A DNA stretch of 64,000 nucleotides from Gemmatimonadota bacterium (lineage in GTDB: Bacteria > Gemmatimonadota > Gemmatimonadetes > Gemmatimonadales > Gemmatimonadaceae): contig JAZKBK010000005.1 in NCBI GenBank assembly GCA_040388625.1, forward strand, positions 159,478 through 223,477, in the 5' to 3' direction. A model generated the notes under the pieces. It was not told the DNA's origin. It did not search any database and worked only from the letters and a program-made list of their open reading frames with translations. Below are positions 2,796 through 31,104 of this stretch, one piece after another (position 1 is the first letter of the stretch; each line of letters starts with the position of its first letter). Made by a program: the position numbers and the translations under genes.

Positions 2796-3020
2796 GAGTG
2801 ATGTCCGGATTTGATAAATGAATGTAGGCAATTCGCGACCTGATTCAAACTAGAGAACCGGGCGCACCATCGGTGTCAGTGTTTCCCTGAGATGGCGCAA
2901 CCCGTTGCCTGACAAAAAAATCCGGGCTTGCCCGACTGTTTGCGGTGTCCGGCGCCCGTACGTTCATCTCAATGCAGTCACTCACCCGCGCTCCACGCGA
3001 GCCATAAGCGAGGTAGTTGT

Positions 3021-8995: not shown

Positions 8996-10870
8996 GTGCG
9001 ACGGAGCAAGGTCACCAACTGGTACAATTCTCCGGCTGTAATTCCCGGCCTGGCGACGGCCTTTGTCCTGGGTGGTCTCGCGGCATGGATCCTCAGGTTA
9101 CCCGTATGGGCCCATCACATATGGATGGCTGGGCTGGTTGCGGGTGGTGCAATCGTCGTGACGGGCACCATCCGCGGTGCGCTGCACGGCAGGTGGGCGT
9201 CGGACATCGTCGCGGCCATGGCGATCGTCACATCTGTCGTCATGGACCAGCCCCTGGCCGGCCTCATCGTGGTGGTAATGCAAACTGGCGGCGAGGCGCT
9301 CGAGCGATATGCGGAGGGTCGAGCATCGCGTGCGGTTCAGGAGCTCGAGGCGGATCGTCCCAAATCAGCCCACGTTCTGCGCGGCGGCGAAGTATCCGAT
9401 ATCAGAGCAGACGAGATTGTCGTCGGCGACAGGGTAATCGTACGCGCCGGCGAACTGATACCGTGCGACGGAATCGTCGAAGAGGGTAGATCCGAGCTCG
9501 ACACATCAAGGCTCACCGGTGAATCGCTGCCGCAGTCGATCGAGCCGGGCGTACCGGTCAGTAGCGGAAGCATCAACGGCGATCGGTTGTTCACGATGCG
9601 CGCCACTGCGATCGCCGAGGCCAGTCAGTATGAGCGCATCGTGCAGCTCGTTCGGGCGGCACTGGAAACCAAGGCGCCGTTTCAACGGATCGCGGATCGC
9701 TACGCCGTCTGGTTCACGCCAATCACGCTCGTGGTAGCTGTTGTCGCGGCGGCAACCACGGGAGACTATCAGAGATTCCTGGCGGTGCTCGTCGTCGCGA
9801 CACCATGCCCCCTCATACTCGCCCCGCCGATCGCGATAATCGGGGGAATCAATCGTGCGGCCCGGCGTCAGATAATCGTGCGCAACGGCGCGGCAATCGA
9901 GCGACTCGCGACCGCCAATGTTGCCGTGCTCGACAAGACCGGCACACTGACGATCGGAAAGCCCGTAGTTCATGCAGTCATTCCACATCCACCATTCTCG
10001 CGCGCAGACGTATTGCGTCTGGCCGGCGCCGTGGAGCAGGGCGCCGCCCATCTGCTCGCACGTACACTCACCGACGCAGCGAAGGCGGAGAATGCGTCTC
10101 TACCACCCGTTCGGGATGTCGTTGAAGCTCCCGGCCGCGGCGTCACCGGGAGTATCGGCGACGATACGGTGATGGTCGGCTCGCACGGTTTCATTGCTGA
10201 GCGTCTGACGCTGGACGCCGATAACTCGATTCCCGAGGATTCCTCCGTCGGACTCAAGGCGTATGTCGCGATCAATGGAAGATTCGCTGGCGTGGTGGCA
10301 TACGACGAGCAGCTGCGAGAGAGCGTGCCAGCAATTCTCTCCGATCTCGAGTCACTCGACATTCCACGCGTCCTGCTGCTGTCAGGCGATCACGGTGACA
10401 ATGCCCGTGCGATAGCAAAGTCGCTCGGCATTACCGAAGTTCGCGGCGATATGAAACCGGGAGACAAGGTTGATGTAGTAAAGGAGTTGACCGCAGCGGG
10501 TGCTCGCGTTCTGATGGTGGGTGACGGCACCAACGATGCACCGGCGTTGAGCGCCGCAACCGTCGGAATAGCGCTCGCAGGTCACGGCGGCGGTGTCACT
10601 GCGGAGGCAGCCGATCTCGTGATTCTGGTCGACGATCTGGGCCGCGTACCCGAAGCGATTCGCATCAGTCGCCACAGCATGAAGATCGCACGAGAAAGCG
10701 TCTGGGCCGGACTTGGGCTCAGTGGAATCGCAATGCTGTTCGCGGCCGCTGGCAAGATCGCGCCAGTGCCCGGCGCGCTGCTTCAGGAAGTGATCGACAT
10801 CGCGGTGATAATCAACGCACTACGCGCCAGTGCTGGCCCGCGACGACCCGTTCAGCGACCCATCAAGTAA
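8996..10870 (+). CDS. heavy-metal P1B-type ATPase with TPCP transmembrane motif (P1B-5-like); no N-terminal metal-binding domain and no hemerythrin domain
   Basis: Motifs LTGESLP, VATPCPLILAPP, DKTGTLT and GDGTNDAP. 624 aa, GTG start. Confidence 0.85.
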   Translation: MRRSKVTNWYNSPAVIPGLATAFVLGGLAAWILRLPVWAHHIWMAGLVAGGAIVVTGTIRGALHGRWASDIVAAMAIVTSVVMDQPLAGLIVVVMQTGGEALERYAEGRASRAVQELEADRPKSAHVLRGGEVSDIRADEIVVGDRVIVRAGELIPCDGIVEEGRSELDTSRLTGESLPQSIEPGVPVSSGSINGDRLFTMRATAIAEASQYERIVQLVRAALETKAPFQRIADRYAVWFTPITLVVAVVAAATTGDYQRFLAVLVVATPCPLILAPPIAIIGGINRAARRQIIVRNGAAIERLATANVAVLDKTGTLTIGKPVVHAVIPHPPFSRADVLRLAGAVEQGAAHLLARTLTDAAKAENASLPPVRDVVEAPGRGVTGSIGDDTVMVGSHGFIAERLTLDADNSIPEDSSVGLKAYVAINGRFAGVVAYDEQLRESVPAILSDLESLDIPRVLLLSGDHGDNARAIAKSLGITEVRGDMKPGDKVDVVKELTAAGARVLMVGDGTNDAPALSAATVGIALAGHGGGVTAEAADLVILVDDLGRVPEAIRISRHSMKIARESVWAGLGLSGIAMLFAAAGKIAPVPGALLQEVIDIAVIINALRASAGPRRPVQRPIK

Positions 10871-12279
10871 TCGATGACGTCGGACGCGGTGTACGTCGTA
10901 CGCGTGCCGAGGAAGTTCTGAATACCAAGCAGATCATCACCGCTCGTCAGCAGCGGCGGCTCCTCGATTCCGCCACCTCGCACCTGCGCCTGCCCGATGT
11001 TCGCTGTCAGTCCGTTGCAGAGACATTCACGACCCTCTGTGTCCGCGAGCGCGCCGCCCTTCTTGACGTACGCGTCCACCGGCTCGGCGGGACAGCGATA
11101 TCCAATGCGGCCATCCGCATCGCGATAGGCAGTGCGCAGATAGCCGAGATCGCATTTACGCTCACGACGCGGCCCGTCGGCGTTGTCGCCGACCCATCGC
11201 ACGACCTTGAAGGGATATCCTGTTGGCGACGCACGCGGATCCGTCACCACATCCAGGTCTCCCAGCGCTGCATGGGCCAGGACTTCCTTCTTGAGCGACT
11301 CAGCGATGCCAGATTCCTCGCAGTACGCGAATAGCGTTCCGACCTGAACGCCGGCCGCACCGGCGACAAGCGCGTCAACGAGTGCTTTCGGTGATCCGGC
11401 GCCACCCGCGATCCAGAACGGCAGACCGAGCTCGGCGATGCGTGCGATGTCGACGACGTCGCGCTCTCCATAGATCGGCTCGCCCCGCTCGTTCAGCTTC
11501 TGTTCACCTCTCGGTGGCGCGTTGTGGCCACCTGCGGTCGGACCTTCCACCACGAAACCATCCACGCGGCCGTTCGCCTTTCTGGCAAGCGTGGCTGCAA
11601 GCGACGTCGCCGCCACGATGGCGATGAATTTCGGCCGCTTCATCGGCATCGACTGGTCGACACCATGAGCCGCGGGATCGAAACTGAGAATTTCGGACTC
11701 CCCGGCCGGCATTCCCTCGACGTCGAATTTCATCGATGCAGTGCGATGCTCGGAGAGCGCGTCCAGCACGCCGGGGATCTCACGTGGGATTCCAGCGCCC
11801 ATCAACACGTAATCCACGCCAGCGAGCATTGCACCGCACAGCGACGCCAGATTTGGCAGCTGTACCTTGGCGAGAAGATTGACGCCGACCAATCCGTCGT
11901 GGCCTTCCCTGGCCAGATACACTTCGACGAAATTCGCGAGCATCGTGACCTGCTGGCGCGCGACGCTGACGTGTTGCTTGTACATCGGAAGCATCTTGTA
12001 CGGCTGAGCTGCTGCGCGACCATTCGGAAGGAAGTAGCGCTTGAGCGCATCCTCACCGACGTGGGCGATCGGAAAATGCTCGATCGCTCGCCGTATGTGT
12101 CCACCCGGATCGCCGTCCTGGAGTCGGCGCACGAAAACCGTATCGAGCGCAGTTCCCGAAACGACGCCAAGATGACCGGCGCGCGCAACGGCGCGCGCCA
12201 GAGGCCAGTTTGAAACACCGACTCCCATTCCACCCTGAATGATGGTCGGAAGCATGATGTTGCGCGGTACGGTAGTCAT
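10852..12279 (-). CDS. nitronate monooxygenase (2-nitropropane dioxygenase) family flavoprotein, long form
   Basis: N-terminus IIQGGMGVGVSNWPLARAVARAGHLGVVSG and TIM-barrel FMN-type motifs (PFWIAGGAGSP). The 3' end overlaps the ATPase 3' end by 19 nt (convergent). Confidence 0.75.
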   Translation of the reverse strand: MTTVPRNIMLPTIIQGGMGVGVSNWPLARAVARAGHLGVVSGTALDTVFVRRLQDGDPGGHIRRAIEHFPIAHVGEDALKRYFLPNGRAAAQPYKMLPMYKQHVSVARQQVTMLANFVEVYLAREGHDGLVGVNLLAKVQLPNLASLCGAMLAGVDYVLMGAGIPREIPGVLDALSEHRTASMKFDVEGMPAGESEILSFDPAAHGVDQSMPMKRPKFIAIVAATSLAATLARKANGRVDGFVVEGPTAGGHNAPPRGEQKLNERGEPIYGERDVVDIARIAELGLPFWIAGGAGSPKALVDALVAGAAGVQVGTLFAYCEESGIAESLKKEVLAHAALGDLDVVTDPRASPTGYPFKVVRWVGDNADGPRRERKCDLGYLRTAYRDADGRIGYRCPAEPVDAYVKKGGALADTEGRECLCNGLTANIGQAQVRGGGIEEPPLLTSGDDLLGIQNFLGTRTTYTASDVIDYLMGR

Positions 12280-12316
12280 GCGGTGGGAAGTTACGGTTGG
12301 CTGCTTCTGCGTTCAG

Positions 12317-12346
12317 TCGGGGTAAGCTGGAAATATCGTAAAGGAA
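12317..12346 (-). promoter_or_regulatory. conserved upstream motif, copy 1 (shared with the nirK upstream region)
   Basis: TCGGGGTAAGCTGGAAAT-atc-GTAAAGGAA lies 38-67 nt upstream of the NMO-family ATG. It matches 29031..29048 at 17 of 18 positions, and the second 9-mer is identical to the one in the nirK copy. Confidence 0.5.
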
Positions 12347-14645: not shown

Positions 14646-14809
14646 TTACACAATTGCGTGTGAGTGAGATACATCTGCTGCTTGTGACGCAACTTACGTG
14701 GACGAGGAATTGATCGGTGTCGGCGTTTCCCTGAAGTGAGCGCGGCGATCTCCCGACACGGAATCCTGCGTCAGCGCACCGTGGCAGAACTTCTTTGTTC
14801 TGGTCTTCT

Positions 14810-25541: not shown

Positions 25542-26264
25542 CTATCTCCCTTGAGCGCGCGCTCGCAGCTTTGCAACATCAGGAATCCGCATCCGCCCGC
25601 GCGGGAGCGATTCCACCAGCCCGGTGCGCTTCAACTGCCGCATCGCGCGTGAAACCGATTCCCGGGCGCTGCCTATCTCCATCGAGAGCTCTTCCTGCGT
25701 ACGATCGAGCTTGATCTCGATTCCGAACTGAGTGTGCGTGCCCGATCTTTCCGCATATCCGACGAGCAGCATCGCCAGCCGCGCGGCTACATCGTGGAAC
25801 GCAAGCGTCTCCGTCACGTGAACGAGGTGCCGGAGGCGCTTGCCGAGTGCGCGAATTATCGCCTGGGCTATGTCCGGATGCTCGCGGTACATCATTTCGA
25901 AATCATCACGCGCGAGAAACATCAGACGTGACGGCTCGACGGTAATCGCCGACGCGGGGTACGGGCCCCCGTCGAACAGTGGCAGCTCGGCGACAGGACG
26001 TCCGGGGCCCTCGATGTGCAGTACCTGCTCCTTGCCGTCCGGGCTCGTGCGATAGATACGCACTCGTCCCGACTGGATCACGTAGAGGCCGCGGCAGGTA
26101 TCGCCAGCGGTAAAGAGCACACGGCCGGCGCCGAAGTCGCGCGCGACACACCGGGCTGCGAGCTGGTGAATTGCCGAGTCTTCGAGTTCCGAGAAGATCG
26201 CCATCTGCCTGAGCAGATGGGTGATCCCGGTTGACGACTCGTCAGTCGATTTTTCCCGTATCAT
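25542..26264 (-). CDS. Crp/Fnr-family transcription regulator (no Fnr-type Cys cluster)
   Basis: cNMP-binding-like domain (GDTCRGLYVIQSGRVRIY) plus C-terminal HTH (TQEELSMEIGSARESVSRAMRQL). ATG 26264 overlaps the upstream stop as ATGA. Confidence 0.85.
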   Translation of the reverse strand: MIREKSTDESSTGITHLLRQMAIFSELEDSAIHQLAARCVARDFGAGRVLFTAGDTCRGLYVIQSGRVRIYRTSPDGKEQVLHIEGPGRPVAELPLFDGGPYPASAITVEPSRLMFLARDDFEMMYREHPDIAQAIIRALGKRLRHLVHVTETLAFHDVAARLAMLLVGYAERSGTHTQFGIEIKLDRTQEELSMEIGSARESVSRAMRQLKRTGLVESLPRGRMRIPDVAKLRARAQGR

Positions 26265-27040
26265 GGGGCGCCGATTCGGAGCGGCGACCACGATGGAGGA
26301 TCGCTGGCCGGGAAGCTGTCGATGGTGCTGTCACGGAATATTTCGCGCGTATCGTGCACACGACGTTGCTCGATCGCGCTGTCAAACAACGCACGGGTGG
26401 AGTCCGTGCAACTGTCTCCGACGCAGGTGAGCGGCGGTACCGAAACGATTCTGCGGTTCCGGACCCTGGCCATCGCGAGTGGCGTGCGCAGACGCGTGCC
26501 GTCCTGCAGCATCATGGTTGGCGTCCCGCGGACGTGATATTCCTCCCGACCGATCCTGCCCTCCTCGGCGACTGCGGCACGTGCGGCCGGACTGGCGAAG
26601 TCACGCTCGAATCGTGCGAAGTCGAGATCGGCAGCGCGTGCCAGCTCCAGCAACACACTGCGGTCGCCGATGTTGCGGCTCTCGCCGAAGAAGGCGCGCC
26701 GTACCGCGAGATCGAGACCCATGGCGATATTCATCCCCTGTTGCCGCGCTGCCCACACGGCTTCGAACGCCGGGAGAGTGGTCGCAGGCCAGTCAGGTGC
26801 AGTATAGGGGACGAAAGATGCGCCTGGCTCCTGTATCGCCGCGAGCCACCATTCCTGCTCCAGCACGTCGCGCGGGGGTGCCTCGTGATTGAACAGCTCC
26901 AGCGGGAAGAAACGCGTATATGCCAGAACGCGGCCGGCGTACTCCGGCTGAACGCGATGCACGCGGACAGCCATCACGTAGCACCAGGGGCAATAGTATT
27001 CAGCCCATTCCCACAATTCCGCGATCGATCGATCACTCAT
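26261..27040 (-). CDS. cytoplasmic DsbA/FrnE-like thioredoxin-fold oxidoreductase
   Basis: CPWC active site near the N-terminus (WAEYYCPWCYV) and no signal peptide. GGGAGG lies 8 nt upstream of ATG 27040. The C-terminal tail ends ...DSFPASDPPSWSPLRIGAP. Confidence 0.7.
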   Translation of the reverse strand: MSDRSIAELWEWAEYYCPWCYVMAVRVHRVQPEYAGRVLAYTRFFPLELFNHEAPPRDVLEQEWWLAAIQEPGASFVPYTAPDWPATTLPAFEAVWAARQQGMNIAMGLDLAVRRAFFGESRNIGDRSVLLELARAADLDFARFERDFASPAARAAVAEEGRIGREEYHVRGTPTMMLQDGTRLRTPLAMARVRNRRIVSVPPLTCVGDSCTDSTRALFDSAIEQRRVHDTREIFRDSTIDSFPASDPPSWSPLRIGAP

Positions 27041-27915: not shown

Positions 27916-28935
27916 CTAGTGCGACATTGTGGTGAACTGCTTTGGTGTTCCGACCTGCACCATCCCGACCGCGCCCTTCTCGGCGTCGGCGAACGAGTGG
28001 GTCACGAAGGGATACAGACCTTCGCCACTCTCGTCCTTGTTGAACACCGCCTCGAACACTACTCCGCCACCGGCGGGCACCGGATAGGTCTGAACACCTT
28101 CCAGAGCGTGAGCCGGGTTACCGTCGGGATAGACACGATCGAATATCGCGCCGACGAGATGGAAGTCGCTGTTGAAGTTCGGTCCGGCGTTCACTACATA
28201 AAAACGTACTCTGTCGCCAACCGCAACCTTGAGCGGATGTTCCTTGTACTGGCTCGCGCGGCCGTTGAAGACAACGTAGCTCGCCTGCTTCGCGCGCTCG
28301 GCGTCCCAGTCAGCCTGGACCACGTTGCTGTCGGCAGTCGGCTTGGTGTAGAACTCGCTCTGCACGATTACGAATTCCTTGTCGGCCTTTGTGCCCCAGC
28401 CGTCGCGCGGATCCACGATGATCGGGAGATACATCCCCTGCATGATGTGCATGGTGACAGGCGGAGTTCCGCAGTGGACCATGAACGCTCCTGCGTCGCG
28501 CGCAACGAACTCGAATGCTACGGAGTCCCTGGGGAGTATCATTCGATATGCGACGTTCGCCGCGATCTGCGCGGCGTGAAAGTCGATCGAGTGCGGCATG
28601 TTGGATTCGTTGACGACGTTCACGCGAACCCGATCACCCTGCCGGACGTGTATTATCGGACCAGGCACGGTCCCGCCGAATGTCCATCCGTCGTACTTCA
28701 CGCCGTCCGCGATCTCGATCACGGCGTTCTTGATCGGGATGCGGTATTCCTTGATGCCAGCGTCGGACGCGTCGGTCAGACGCGCGTTGTACACTGGTGT
28801 GGTGGCGGTTACGACCTTGTCAAAATCGATATACTGCACCTTGTTCGCGCGGATCGCATTGTCGGTGAACCCCAGTACACCAGCTGTGAGGACACCAGTT
28901 ACGGCCAGCGCTGCAAGAATCTGTGTACGTGTCAT
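27916..28935 (-). CDS. nirK: copper-containing nitrite reductase NirK (compact two-cupredoxin-domain form)
   Basis: HSIDFH (T1 His, catalytic Asp, T2 His), VHCGTPPVTMHIMQGM (T2 His, T1 Cys, His, Met), FHLVG (catalytic His) and VTHSF (third T2 His). HC is not followed by His, so this is not a laccase. Confidence 0.75.
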   Translation of the reverse strand: MTRTQILAALAVTGVLTAGVLGFTDNAIRANKVQYIDFDKVVTATTPVYNARLTDASDAGIKEYRIPIKNAVIEIADGVKYDGWTFGGTVPGPIIHVRQGDRVRVNVVNESNMPHSIDFHAAQIAANVAYRMILPRDSVAFEFVARDAGAFMVHCGTPPVTMHIMQGMYLPIIVDPRDGWGTKADKEFVIVQSEFYTKPTADSNVVQADWDAERAKQASYVVFNGRASQYKEHPLKVAVGDRVRFYVVNAGPNFNSDFHLVGAIFDRVYPDGNPAHALEGVQTYPVPAGGGVVFEAVFNKDESGEGLYPFVTHSFADAEKGAVGMVQVGTPKQFTTMSH

Positions 28936-29030
28936 GATCTTCTCCGGATGATGCGAGATGTTCTGTTTCTCGCCTGCGGTTGTTCCGCATGTTGCATCGG
29001 GAAGCTAGGAGAAATATGGTATCCAATCTG

Positions 29031-29083
29031 TCGGGTTAAGCTGGAAATTCCCTGCGGGAATTGCCGTCCTGCGGGTAAAGGAA
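29031..29083 (-). promoter_or_regulatory. conserved upstream motif, copy 2, interrupted by a 26-nt segment containing a perfect palindrome
   Basis: TCGGGTTAAGCTGGAAAT ... GTAAAGGAA lies 96-148 nt upstream of the nirK ATG. The internal AATTCCC-TGC-GGGAATT sits at 29046..29062, and direct CCTGCGGG repeats sit at 29051 and 29068. Confidence 0.5.
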
Positions 29084-29179
29084 AGCCTTACCCGGAGTGG
29101 CCGCTGTAGGGGATTTCCGTACATATTTCGTTGTGGCTCCCCGACTTTGGAGAGTCTCCGACAGGGGTAGCTTTGACTC

Positions 29180-30448
29180 ATGGATGCGGCCGCAAAAGAG
29201 ACGGTGGAGCAGGGAGCCCGGCCGGAGGAGGAGATCCGTCCGGTGCCGCACGGCGCGCTGCTGACCCGGTTGGAGCGCGCCGATCAGTCCCCCCCGGGAT
29301 TCCAGGACCGAGACACGGACTTGGACGCCGATCTGACAGCGCGTCAGGCGGACGGGCAGGGTGTCCGCAGAGTCCCTCGCTGGATCGAGCGTCTGCTCCG
29401 CATCCCGCTGCCAGTGAAGCTTGTCGGCGCAAACGTCCTTCTGCTCGTCGTGGCGGCAACTACAGCGCTCGTGCTACGCCATCGCGAGCTGAGCACCGGC
29501 CCCGTCCTCGCGGTTGTGATCATCGCATATCTCGTCGCACTGCTGCTGAACACGGGGCTCGTCGTACTCGCGGTTCGGCCGCTTCGTGTACTCGAGAAAA
29601 CGGTGGACACGATCTGGCATGGTGATCTCGATGCACGGGTCCCGATATCCCTGCTCGCCGACAGACATGTCAGGCGTGTTGCGCGCATGTTCAACATTCT
29701 GCTCGATGGCCTCGTCGCGGACCGCGCACGCACGCGCCGCCTCGCCAGCGAGATCATCGACGCTGGCGACAGGGAGCGCGCCGCTATCTCACGCGAGTTG
29801 CACGATTCAGCCGCTCAGTCTCTCGCAGCGCTCGCGATGCAGCTCGGCGTCGCGGTCCGAAGCATCGACGACGCACCGCCCCACACGGTCCGCGAGCGCA
29901 TCGAAGGAGCTCGGACACTCGCAAACAGCACGCTGGAAGAAATACGCATGCTGGCGCATACGATGCACCCGCGCGTGCTCGACGATCTCGGCCTCATCGC
30001 AGCGCTCAAGCGCCTCGCGCGCGAGACGGCGGATCATTCCGCCAGCTACGCAACAGCGGGGAAGGCCGGGGCCATCGTCGTTGAAGTGCTGGCGACGGAA
30101 GGCAGCGACGATGCGCTGTCGGCACCTGTCAAGTCGGTGTTGTATCGTGTCGCGCAGGAAGCTGTGCAGAATGCGCGCCGGCACGCAGCGCCCAGACATA
30201 TCGAGATCCGTCTCGAGACCGGCGCGCGCTCCGTGATTCTGGAGATCGCAGATGACGGCCGCGGCTTCGATCTTGCCGCTAAGCAGCGCGAACAGACGGG
30301 CATTGGACTGTTCACGATGCGGGAACGCGTCGCCCTCGTCGACGGTGAGTTGCATGTCACAACCAGGCCGGGAGGCGGTACGTCCGTAGTTGCGTCGATA
30401 CCGTTGCACGATTCATCTTCAGAAGTTCAACGCGGAGCAGATACATGA
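29180..30448 (+). CDS. sensor histidine kinase, NarX/LiaS-like (HisKA_3 + HATPase_c), two TM helices with a minimal periplasmic loop, HAMP
   Basis: ERAAISRELHDSAAQSLAAL H-box and the GIGLFTMRERV G-box region. Confidence 0.85.
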   Translation: MDAAAKETVEQGARPEEEIRPVPHGALLTRLERADQSPPGFQDRDTDLDADLTARQADGQGVRRVPRWIERLLRIPLPVKLVGANVLLLVVAATTALVLRHRELSTGPVLAVVIIAYLVALLLNTGLVVLAVRPLRVLEKTVDTIWHGDLDARVPISLLADRHVRRVARMFNILLDGLVADRARTRRLASEIIDAGDRERAAISRELHDSAAQSLAALAMQLGVAVRSIDDAPPHTVRERIEGARTLANSTLEEIRMLAHTMHPRVLDDLGLIAALKRLARETADHSASYATAGKAGAIVVEVLATEGSDDALSAPVKSVLYRVAQEAVQNARRHAAPRHIEIRLETGARSVILEIADDGRGFDLAAKQREQTGIGLFTMRERVALVDGELHVTTRPGGGTSVVASIPLHDSSSEVQRGADT

Positions 30449-31104
30449 GCGCACCCACCATTCGCGTAATTCTCGCCGACGATCACGCCGTCGTCCGTGC
30501 AGGCCTCAGGGCGGTGCTCGGCGCCGCACCCGACATCGATGTGATCGGTGAAGCCTCCAATGGAGCCGAAGCCGTGCAGCTCGCCGACACTCTCGATCCC
30601 GACGTCGTTGTCATGGATCTGACGATGGATGGCATGGATGGCGCCACCGCAACACGCGAGATCGTCGCCAAGCATCTGCGCGCGCGCGTGCTCGTGCTGA
30701 CGATGCACGCCGAGGAGGACTATCTCATCCCCGTACTCGAAGCAGGGGCGGCGGGCTATCTGATGAAGAACGCCGCCGATCGCGAGCTGGTCGATGCCGT
30801 CCGCACCGTTGCAGGCGGCGACATGTTCATACGTCCAAGCGCCGCCAAGATTCTCGCGCAGGGCGTGACGAAGAAGGATCCGCTGAACGCCGACCGCACG
30901 CGCTTCGAGCGCCTGACCGATCGCGAACAGAACGTCCTGCGCCTGACGGCGCAGGGATATTCGGCACCGGAGATCGGCGAGCGGCTATTCATCAGTCCCA
31001 AGACAGTCGATACATACAAGCAACGCATAGGCGACAAGCTCGGACTCACTCACCGCGCCGAATACATCGCGTTCGCGCTGAAGCTGGGGTTGCTGACGGA
31101 ATAG
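30445..31104 (+). CDS. NarL/LuxR-family response regulator
   Basis: IRVILADDH...DVVVMDLTMDGMDG receiver plus C-terminal LTDREQNVLRLTAQGYSAPEIGERLFISPKTV HTH. ATGA overlap with the kinase stop. Confidence 0.9.
   Translation: MSAPTIRVILADDHAVVRAGLRAVLGAAPDIDVIGEASNGAEAVQLADTLDPDVVVMDLTMDGMDGATATREIVAKHLRARVLVLTMHAEEDYLIPVLEAGAAGYLMKNAADRELVDAVRTVAGGDMFIRPSAAKILAQGVTKKDPLNADRTRFERLTDREQNVLRLTAQGYSAPEIGERLFISPKTVDTYKQRIGDKLGLTHRAEYIAFALKLGLLTE

Follow-up and report, generated by a model that had tools for sequence, protein, structure and literature searches.

A putative tandem-box promoter module ahead of nirK, nosZ and a NarL-type two-component operon in Gemmatimonadaceae

Shared strings upstream of nirK belong to a larger promoter module

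The copper nitrite reductase gene nirK of genome G000 (Gemmatimonadaceae; 3.84 Mb, 62% G+C) lies in a 64-kb stretch of contig C5, the window analyzed here, and its upstream region shares an 18-mer and a 9-mer with that of a nitronate monooxygenase (NMO)-family gene in the same window. These two strings, from which the comparison began, are arbitrary slices of a bigger promoter module. They are probably pieces of the promoter-operator module of one autoregulated NarL/FixJ-family regulon, with tandem boxes near -43 and -65; this assignment is made from sequence comparison.

The initial annotation had proposed an upstream element common to the two genes, and every string that it quoted, including a palindrome and direct repeats, was recovered at its position. 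The 18-mer is present as TCGGGTTAAGCTGGAAAT (29031 to 29048) and TCGGGGTAAGCTGGAAAT (12317 to 12334), identical at 17 of 18 positions, and the 9-mer GTAAAGGAA follows at 29075 to 29083 and 12338 to 12346, with gaps of 26 nt and 3 nt, respectively. Downstream of each copy is a minus-strand open reading frame (ORF). With up to three mismatches allowed, the 18-mer has 2 matches in the window against 0.01 expected, so that the proposed excess over chance was borne out, and these are the only copies in the whole genome, the next best site having four mismatches. Because there are only two genome copies, far above expectation, neither a chance match nor a dispersed repeat explains the similarity. 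A repeat similar to repetitive extragenic palindromic sequences or miniature inverted-repeat transposable elements was likewise rejected, as the composite module occupies only about eight to nine positions, all at promoters.

Each copy of the module is composed of two boxes, a spacer, and a -10 box. Box A is a 17-bp palindrome with the ideal sequence GTAGGGGA-W-TCCCCTAC, of which the 9-mer is the right part, and box B is a weaker 17-bp box whose centre lies 22 to 23 bp (two helical turns) downstream of that of box A and which ends in the half-site CCCCGAC. A nonconserved spacer of 22 to 23 nt then leads to a TAnnTT -10 box. On the gene strand, the similarity between nirK and the NMO-family gene runs on through CCCGAC, exactly 22 unrelated bases, and TA(G/A)CTTCCC, with the sequences ATTTCCAGCTTAACCCGAC-N22-TAGCTTCCC for nirK and ATTTCCAGCTTACCCCGAC-N22-TAACTTCCC for the NMO-family gene. 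The 18-mer/9-mer pair is real, but it represents only parts of a module with two 17-bp boxes, a 22-nt spacer, and TAnnTT. A third copy (29106 to 29173), missed by the initial annotation, sits in the nirK intergenic region in divergent orientation, ahead of a kinase/regulator operon. The elements of the three copies are as follows.

27916 to 28935, minus strand: nirK, copper nitrite reductase; multicopper-oxidase domains; TIGR02376 match of 192 bits, short of the 296-bit cutoff
29075 to 29091, minus strand: nirK distal box A, GTAAGGCTTTCCTTTAC (gene strand); best upstream match of the block-A position weight matrix (PWM), score 20; holds the 9-mer
29030 to 29046, minus strand: nirK proximal box B, TTCCAGCTTAACCCGAC (gene strand); covers most of the 18-mer; second-best PWM position; CCCGAC half-site at 29030 to 29035
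29002 to 29007, minus strand: nirK -10-like hexamer TAGCTT, 22 nt downstream of CCCGAC
10852 to 12279, minus strand: NMO/FabK-superfamily FMN oxidoreductase, 475 amino acids; PF03060 at 69 bits
12338 to 12354, minus strand: NMO box A, GTCGGGGATTCCTTTAC (gene strand); fixed offset of -39 in 10 same-genus genomes
12316 to 12332, minus strand: NMO box B, TTCCAGCTTACCCCGAC (gene strand); covers most of the 18-mer; second-best PWM position, P of about 1e-3 to 1e-4
12288 to 12293, minus strand: NMO -10 hexamer TAACTT, separated from CCCGAC by 22 nt and from the ATG at 12279 by 8 nt; near-leaderless
29106 to 29122, plus strand: kinase-operon box A, GTAGGGGATTTCCGTAC
29129 to 29145, plus strand: kinase-operon box B, ending in CTCCCCGAC; TCCCCGAC invariant or nearly so in 11 genomes
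29168 to 29173, plus strand: kinase-operon -10 hexamer TAGCTT, with 6 nt between it and the ATG at 29180; leaderless layout

Block-wise conservation of the module

Footprinting was carried out by alignment of orthologue upstream regions, and all related genomes are metagenome-assembled genomes (MAGs) of uncultured Gemmatimonadaceae. The footprints of nirK and the NMO-family gene are kept in their orthologues, in line with the proposal of a shared, promoter-associated regulatory sequence. For nirK (10 genomes, NirK 71 to 100% identical), the conserved blocks are GTAGGG.TT.CC..TAC, TTTC.A..TT..CCCGACAGA, and CCTA..TTCC.GA.G, followed by a two-hairpin leader and GGAG; CCCGACAGA is invariant among same-genus orthologues and CCTA..TT in the 10 genomes. 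The NMO footprint (10 same-genus genomes) reads GTCGGGGATTCCCCTA-(5)-T.C....TTA.CCCGACT-(22/23)-TA..TT-(6-8)-ATG, and four of these genomes gave no orthologous-type nirK match. The kinase footprint (11 genomes) is GTAGGGGAATCCCCTAC-(6)-...CTCCCCGAC-(22)-TAGCTTT-(6)-ATG, in which GTAGGGGAATCCCCTAC has an identical position, TA..TT never varies, and 6 nt always separate it from the ATG.

Mean pairwise identity, calculated from 6 nonredundant genomes for nirK, 8 for the NMO-family gene, and 11 for the kinase, is 0.73 to 0.89 in the boxes and the -10 hexamer and 0.34 to 0.46 in the spacers and flanks. Box A of nirK has a value of 0.73 (flank, 0.42; 22-nt spacer, 0.34) and that of the NMO-family gene a value of 0.89 (flank, 0.34). 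The offset of box A, measured from its start to the end of CCCGAC, is -39 in 10/10 genomes for the NMO-family gene, -40 in 11/11 for the kinase, and -61 to -63 in 9/9 for nirK.

The TAnnTT hexamer is located 6 nt (kinase) or 6 to 8 nt (NMO) ahead of the conserved ATG in aligned orthologues, a distance that fits leaderless mRNAs and speaks for reading the hexamer as a -10 box; transcripts of the kinase operon and the NMO-family gene seem to have little or no leader. If the first base of the leaderless kinase ATG is set as +1, with transcription starts placed from start codons or -10 positions, CCCGAC extends from -40 to -35, with the box B centre at -43 and the box A centre at -65/-66, and box B would thus abut or overlap the -35 region. 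Module promoters seem to have no usable -35 hexamer. Box B is best read as one good half-site with a degenerate partner, because its invariant CCCCGAC mirrors, as the reverse complement, the left arm GTCGGGG of NMO box A. When promoters were scored with a symmetric box-A PWM trained on 28 distinct box A sequences, the box B frame came second in most of those of nirK, the NMO-family gene, multicopper oxidase, and universal stress proteins (USPs) (P of about 1e-3 to 1e-4 per position).

The strictness of CCCGAC might also be explained if a dedicated alternative sigma factor recognized CCCGAC and TAnnTT, with box A as an auxiliary activator site. CCCGAC is indeed conserved more strictly than a weak secondary operator needs, and it occurs essentially only at module promoters. 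However, the 22 to 23 nt between it and the -10 box exceed the spacing used by sigma-70 or extracytoplasmic function (ECF) sigma factors (16 to 19 nt); the motifs resemble neither the ECF consensus (AAC / CGT) nor that of sigma-54 (GG-N10-GC); and CCCCGAC is exactly the box A half-site of the NMO promoters. In addition, no sigma gene was noticed beside the sites among the partly annotated genes of the island, for which no systematic check was made. We consider such a sigma factor quite improbable. The sigma-54, ECF, and standard -35 readings of CCCGAC were rejected on the misfit of spacing and motifs, compared by eye with consensus sequences.

The pattern of conservation also bears on whether the shared sequence could be a transcribed RNA element, or a relic of promoter duplication without common regulation. 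The NMO copy falls in an 80-nt gap after the upstream gene, and base pairing between the half-sites TCGGGG and CCCCGA is conceivable if transcription reads through. Against this, the module occurs on both strands, for divergent genes; its block-wise conservation, free spacers, and fixed start-codon distances are a DNA-level signature; unrelated genes bear it in many genomes; and no Rfam family matched the nirK and kinase copies at an E value of 1 or lower (range searched, 28800 to 29300). Either origin seems very improbable, and we retain the reading of the module as an operator-promoter.

A putative third box in the nirK promoter

In the nirK copy, the 18-mer and the 9-mer are further apart than in the NMO copy, which the initial annotation had described as one element interrupted by a palindrome-bearing insert. 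The additional features of this promoter are the following.

29052 to 29068, minus strand: putative nirK middle box M, GACGGCAATTCCCGCAG (gene strand); degenerate; fills the proposed insert
29046 to 29062, unstranded: perfect palindrome AATTCCC-TGC-GGGAATT (AATTCCC-N3-GGGAATT), which covers box M's right half and the M-B gap and reaches one base into box B
28936 to 28995, minus strand: predicted nirK 5' leader of ~60 nt, its start placed from the -10 hexamer; hairpins at 28975 to 28989 and 28953 to 28973; GGAG ribosome-binding site

The notion of an interrupting insert was not sustained by the orthologues: the extra 23 bp are present in 9/9 same-genus nirK orthologues aligned, and they form a box-length unit whose centre lies 23 bp from that of box A and 22 bp from that of box B. 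The PWM ranks the box M offset (-39/-40) among the top two to four positions in 9/9 nirK orthologues scored, and its conservation is intermediate (0.53). The segment therefore appears to be a third, degenerate box of one operator length and no recent insertion. Similarly long spacings are found elsewhere: at the matching offset, the nosZ promoter carries a box-like element, weaker than its proximal box, and gaps of 38 to 40 nt occur in the multicopper oxidase promoters of G026 and G030, which represent two other genera.

The perfect palindrome occurs in G000, G015, and G016, is weakened in G011, and is absent from more distant nirK orthologues; together with the direct repeats of CCTGCGGG (29051 to 29058 and 29068 to 29075), it is conserved only where NirK is at least 97% identical (G015, G016, and partly G011). 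As a class, perfect 7-N3-7 palindromes are not rare, at about 8.6 per 64 kb. The palindrome and repeats were rejected as the core of an insert, being lost beyond relatives with about 97% identical NirK, and they are lineage-specific features superimposed on box M and the M-B gap.

The leader hairpins, TGCGG-AACAA-CCGCA and GCGAG-loop-CTCGC, are located just upstream of GGAG. Their stems are kept in orthologues, whereas the loops vary or expand, with a 25-nt loop expansion in the nirK leader of G020; they may act on mRNA stability or as a translational element.

A NarL-type two-component system as candidate regulator

The third module copy points to the operon that it precedes as the source of the regulator.

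29180 to 31104, plus strand: candidate cognate two-component system; Pfam and NCBIfam matches, translation, and Protein Data Bank (PDB) neighbours VraR, NarL, and DevR

The kinase (29180 to 30448) contains PF07730 (HisKA_3) and PF02518 (HATPase_c), preceded by a cytoplasmic N terminus of about 75 amino acids, two closely spaced transmembrane (TM) helices, and a subthreshold HAMP match that may represent a HAMP-type linker; its domain matches include no GAF or PAS domain and no recognizable O2- or NO-sensing domain. The regulator (30445 to 31104) is of the NarL/FixJ type, with PF00072 (REC) and PF00196 (GerE), and its nearest structures are VraR, NarL, and DevR.

Within the genus (11 genomes), the best palindromes precede the kinase/regulator operon; representatives of three other genera (G026, G030, and G028) have them ahead of a multicopper oxidase-kinase(-regulator) gene set, with the module about 1.1 to 1.3 kb upstream of the kinase. 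In G026 (L066, 190 to 3240), a gene for a two-domain multicopper oxidase with a twin-arginine translocation (TAT) signal fills the gap, giving a multicopper oxidase-kinase-regulator operon, and in G000 the multicopper oxidase lies 54 kb off with its own module copy. The multicopper oxidase may be functionally tied to the signalling. The palindrome GTAGGGGAWTCCCCTAC, with at most two mismatches, was found in 22/28 kinase-positive versus 4/33 kinase-negative genomes, one of the 4 being only 67% complete (Fisher P = 2.5e-7 for all genomes and 0.004 within the family), and a control pattern gave 8 matches in 61 genomes.

Several features expected of an autoregulated NarL/FixJ operator thus coincide, namely, a REC-GerE regulator with a HisKA_3 kinase, a palindrome of ~16 to 20 bp that also precedes their own operon, and co-occurrence of palindrome and kinase; the last two are the usual comparative hallmark of a two-component regulon under autoregulation. 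The NarL-type pair, already named as an obvious candidate by the initial annotation, gains from these findings, whereas the Crp-family protein suggested beside it is a poor candidate, with odd-length, G-rich boxes unlike those of Crp/FNR. In the proposed mechanism, the phosphorylated regulator would bind box A as a dimer and cooperatively recruit a second dimer onto the weak box B, from which it would activate RNA polymerase; activation from box B is proposed because the module promoters seem to have no usable -35 hexamer. The regulator would also activate its own operon.

Some observations weigh against this mechanism. Outside CCCCGAC, box B of the kinase promoter scores poorly with the box-A PWM (P of about 0.05), and because it is unlike box A there, the proximal element could be recognized by something other than the box-A binder. 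The absence of a usable -35 hexamer rests on poor conservation at the 17-nt position, and the housekeeping consensus of the phylum may differ. Box M is poorly conserved, palindrome-kinase co-occurrence partly tracks phylogeny in a data set made up of MAGs, and one assigned promoter, that of an AI-2E transporter operon, has its site conserved only in one 95%-identical relative, with 63%-identical homologues in a different context. Both regulator binding and transcription starts are inferred.

A related possibility is that the operator-promoter is real and the palindrome is bound by another factor, such as the Crp/Fnr-family protein (25542 to 26291), DrpA/DrpB, or an unlinked NO/O2 sensor, with the two-component operon as a mere target. 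The regulator assignment rests only on autoregulation logic and co-occurrence, further regulators are encoded in the island, and the kinase carries no recognizable O2- or NO-sensing domain, all of which leave room for such a factor. However, 17-bp odd-length G-rich palindromes are typical of GerE/NarL-type dimers and unlike TTGAT-N4-ATCAA or TGTGA-N6-TCACA, neither of which was seen by eye in the conserved nirK, NMO, and kinase blocks (no pattern scan was run), and the palindrome is physically tied to the kinase operon across four genera. We judge a different binding factor unlikely and favour the NarL-type regulator.

Draft regulon in G000

The pattern CCCGAC-N22-TAnnTT has six matches in the genome, five of which lie on one contig, correctly oriented ahead of genes: nirK, the NMO-family gene, nosZ (2931 to 2964), a multicopper oxidase operon (C5:133984 to 134050), and the kinase/regulator operon. 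The box-A PWM at a score of at least 8 gave 111 genome sites versus 102 in a reversed-genome control; 8/111 have CCGAY-N22/23-YAnnnT at 22 to 24 or 45 nt, and 8/8 are promoter-placed. A loose mismatch-based composite scan (box A at least 11/16) gave 8 hits in the real genome and 7 in the reversed genome, and because it equals the control, only high-scoring boxes or exact distance rules are specific. The draft regulon, with the ninth promoter found by other means than the PWM-plus-distance scan, is as follows.

1, in the window: nirK
2, in the window: NMO-family gene
3, in the window: kinase/regulator operon
4, 2875 to 2964, plus strand: nosZ promoter; upstream box-like element at 2875 to 2891; proximal box ATCCGGGCTTGCCCGAC at 2920 to 2936; 22-nt spacer; -10 hexamer TACGTT at 2959 to 2964
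5, C5:133984, outside the window: operon of a TAT-signal two-domain multicopper oxidase, then a PAS kinase, a Pyridox_ox_2 protein, and SulP
6, C5:147153, outside the window: two tandem-USP genes
7, C5:147114, outside the window: divergent secreted-protein/porin-like operon with three phased boxes
8, C6:252817, less secure: AI-2E transporter/tandem-USP/P-type ATPase operon
9, 14691 to 14757, minus strand, probable promoter: 4-TM mini-protein/FTR1-cytochrome c operon; degenerate box A at 14741 to 14757; box B ending in GCCGAC at 14719 to 14735; -10 hexamer TAAGTT at 14691 to 14696

The promoters of the NMO-family gene, the kinase, and the multicopper oxidase have two boxes, and that of nirK has three in phase (A, 23 bp, M, 22 bp, B), an arrangement that the nosZ promoter may share. 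The nosZ proximal box has a PWM score of 7.4 (P = 3e-5), and the three elements of this promoter are conserved in the six genomes aligned, with the footprint AATCCGGG.T.GCC.GACT, CCGTA.GTTCA, and an upstream block, followed by a leader of about 50 nt. The upstream region of nosZ at 2860 to 2905 contains a genus-invariant block, GGTGTCAG..TTTCCCTGAG, and then a largely conserved CCTGAC; it fits box A poorly and may be bound by another factor. At the FTR1 operon, box A is decayed in G000, and the orthologous position is occupied by a near-perfect box, GTAGGGGATTACCCTAC, in G002 and by a two-mismatch box in G008, each with ACCGAC-N22-TAnnnT. The AI-2E/USP/ATPase promoter would be the weakest member.

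At C5:147114 to 147230, the divergent pair shares a box, and the operon encodes a secreted protein of 231 amino acids and a porin-like protein of 462 amino acids, with a radical-SAM gene further downstream. The protein of the NMO-family gene is 57 to 99% conserved across Gemmatimonadaceae, and in G000 its gene converges on the end of the nos cluster. Its best solved relatives are 2-nitropropane dioxygenases (E = 3e-8), with NMO/FabK structures no better, so that the label nitronate monooxygenase appears weak. The rationale by which this enzyme would release the nitrite that NirK consumes found no backing, as the protein is distant from characterized nitronate monooxygenases (PDB E = 3e-8; Pfam NMO, 69 bits).

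The initial annotation had also seen part of the insert recur upstream of a phosphoketolase gene. The pieces, GGGAATTGC at 1574 to 1582 and CGTCCTG at 1602 to 1608, are there, but at chance level, with 46 (9-mer) and 948 (7-mer) copies in the genome; without CCGAC and a -10 module, the site was rejected as a module copy. At 1582 to 1628, the region upstream of this phosphoketolase-like gene contains the hairpins CAGGATC-AGGAT-GATCCTG and CCGTCCTG-N11-CAGGACGG, which are unrelated to the module and possibly form the terminator of the upstream gene.

Gemmatimonadaceae are abundant in soil and carry clade II nosZ, which makes them potential N2O sinks, and our literature search found no paper on the regulation of denitrification in this family. 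The analysis yields a testable operator sequence together with a promoter layout, names a candidate regulator, and drafts a regulon joining nirK, nosZ, metal/redox accessory genes, and stress proteins. These can be used in reading metatranscriptomes, in predicting which MAGs co-induce N2O and nitrite reduction, and in designing reporter or DAP-seq work for uncultured lineages. More speculatively, this family-restricted two-component system might be a master switch in soil and peat Gemmatimonadaceae, both for copper-based denitrification (nirK and clade II nosZ) and for a dormancy-like stress set. Its kinase would then sense unconventionally, perhaps through the membrane or respiratory chain or via the TAT-exported two-domain multicopper oxidase, which appears to share a transcript with the kinase in other genera; the suggestion of unconventional sensing comes from the build of the kinase, with its short cytoplasmic N terminus, two TM helices, and possible HAMP-type linker. 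We hold this wider role to be a tentative and rather doubtful extension.

Comparison with known systems

As a rule, promoters controlled by DevR/DosR of Mycobacterium tuberculosis carry two or more boxes in tandem and in helical phase, at -42.5 and -63.5; a conserved box nucleates cooperative binding to a poorly conserved neighbour, and divergent promoters can share boxes (PMC3177182). The contacts of DosR with RNA polymerase, described in a recent cryo-electron microscopy study, involve sigma region 4 and the alpha subunits (PMC13486717). The system described here is similar in having a NarL-family regulator with a probably autoregulated operon and boxes spaced 22 to 23 bp apart, whose centres would lie near -43 and -65/-66 with +1 taken from leaderless start codons. 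As with DevR, one box is common to nirK and the kinase operon in G018 and G014, and tandem USP proteins, a P-type ATPase, and a Pyridox_ox_2 protein recall the DevR/DosR regulon.

However, the box here is GGGGA-W-TCCCC within 17 bp, whereas the Dev box has a GGGAC-N4-GTCCC core within 18 to 20 bp (length and key bases, PMC3177182). The regulator shows no special closeness to DevR, which (E = 2e-32) ranks below both VraR and NarL. Its recognition helix reads KTVDTY instead of the KTVKNY of DosR, with D and T at the positions that we take to be DosR K182 and N183. Unlike the DosR kinases, the kinase has two TM helices, a possible HAMP-type linker, and no tandem GAF (heme) domains, and unlike that of DevR/DosR, the regulon includes denitrification enzymes. 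A DosR/DevR dormancy regulon proper was therefore rejected on regulator rank, recognition helix, missing GAF domains, and box sequence and length.

NreC of Staphylococcus carnosus and Staphylococcus aureus is a NarL-family regulator that activates nitrate/nitrite respiration operons via a GC-rich palindrome (PMC8139620, PMC5694512). Its partner NreB is a cytoplasmic PAS/[4Fe-4S] oxygen sensor, whereas the kinase here is membrane-bound without such a domain, and the targets are copper-type nirK and nosZ in another phylum, not nar/nir assimilatory-type operons. The NreC box, which Fedtke et al. reportedly described in 2002 as TAGGG-N4-CCCTA, nearly equals the core here, TAGGG-N5-CCCTA, whose spacer is one base longer. 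In Neisseria, the NarL-family regulator of NarQ/NarP activates the aniA (nirK) promoter from upstream sites. The Escherichia coli NarL/NarP heptamers (TACYYMT, 7-2-7) mismatch the module boxes, and the kinase lacks the periplasmic nitrate-sensing P-boxes of NarX/NarQ. In concept, the module would extend tandem-box activation of the NreC/DosR style to another phylum and to copper-type denitrification.

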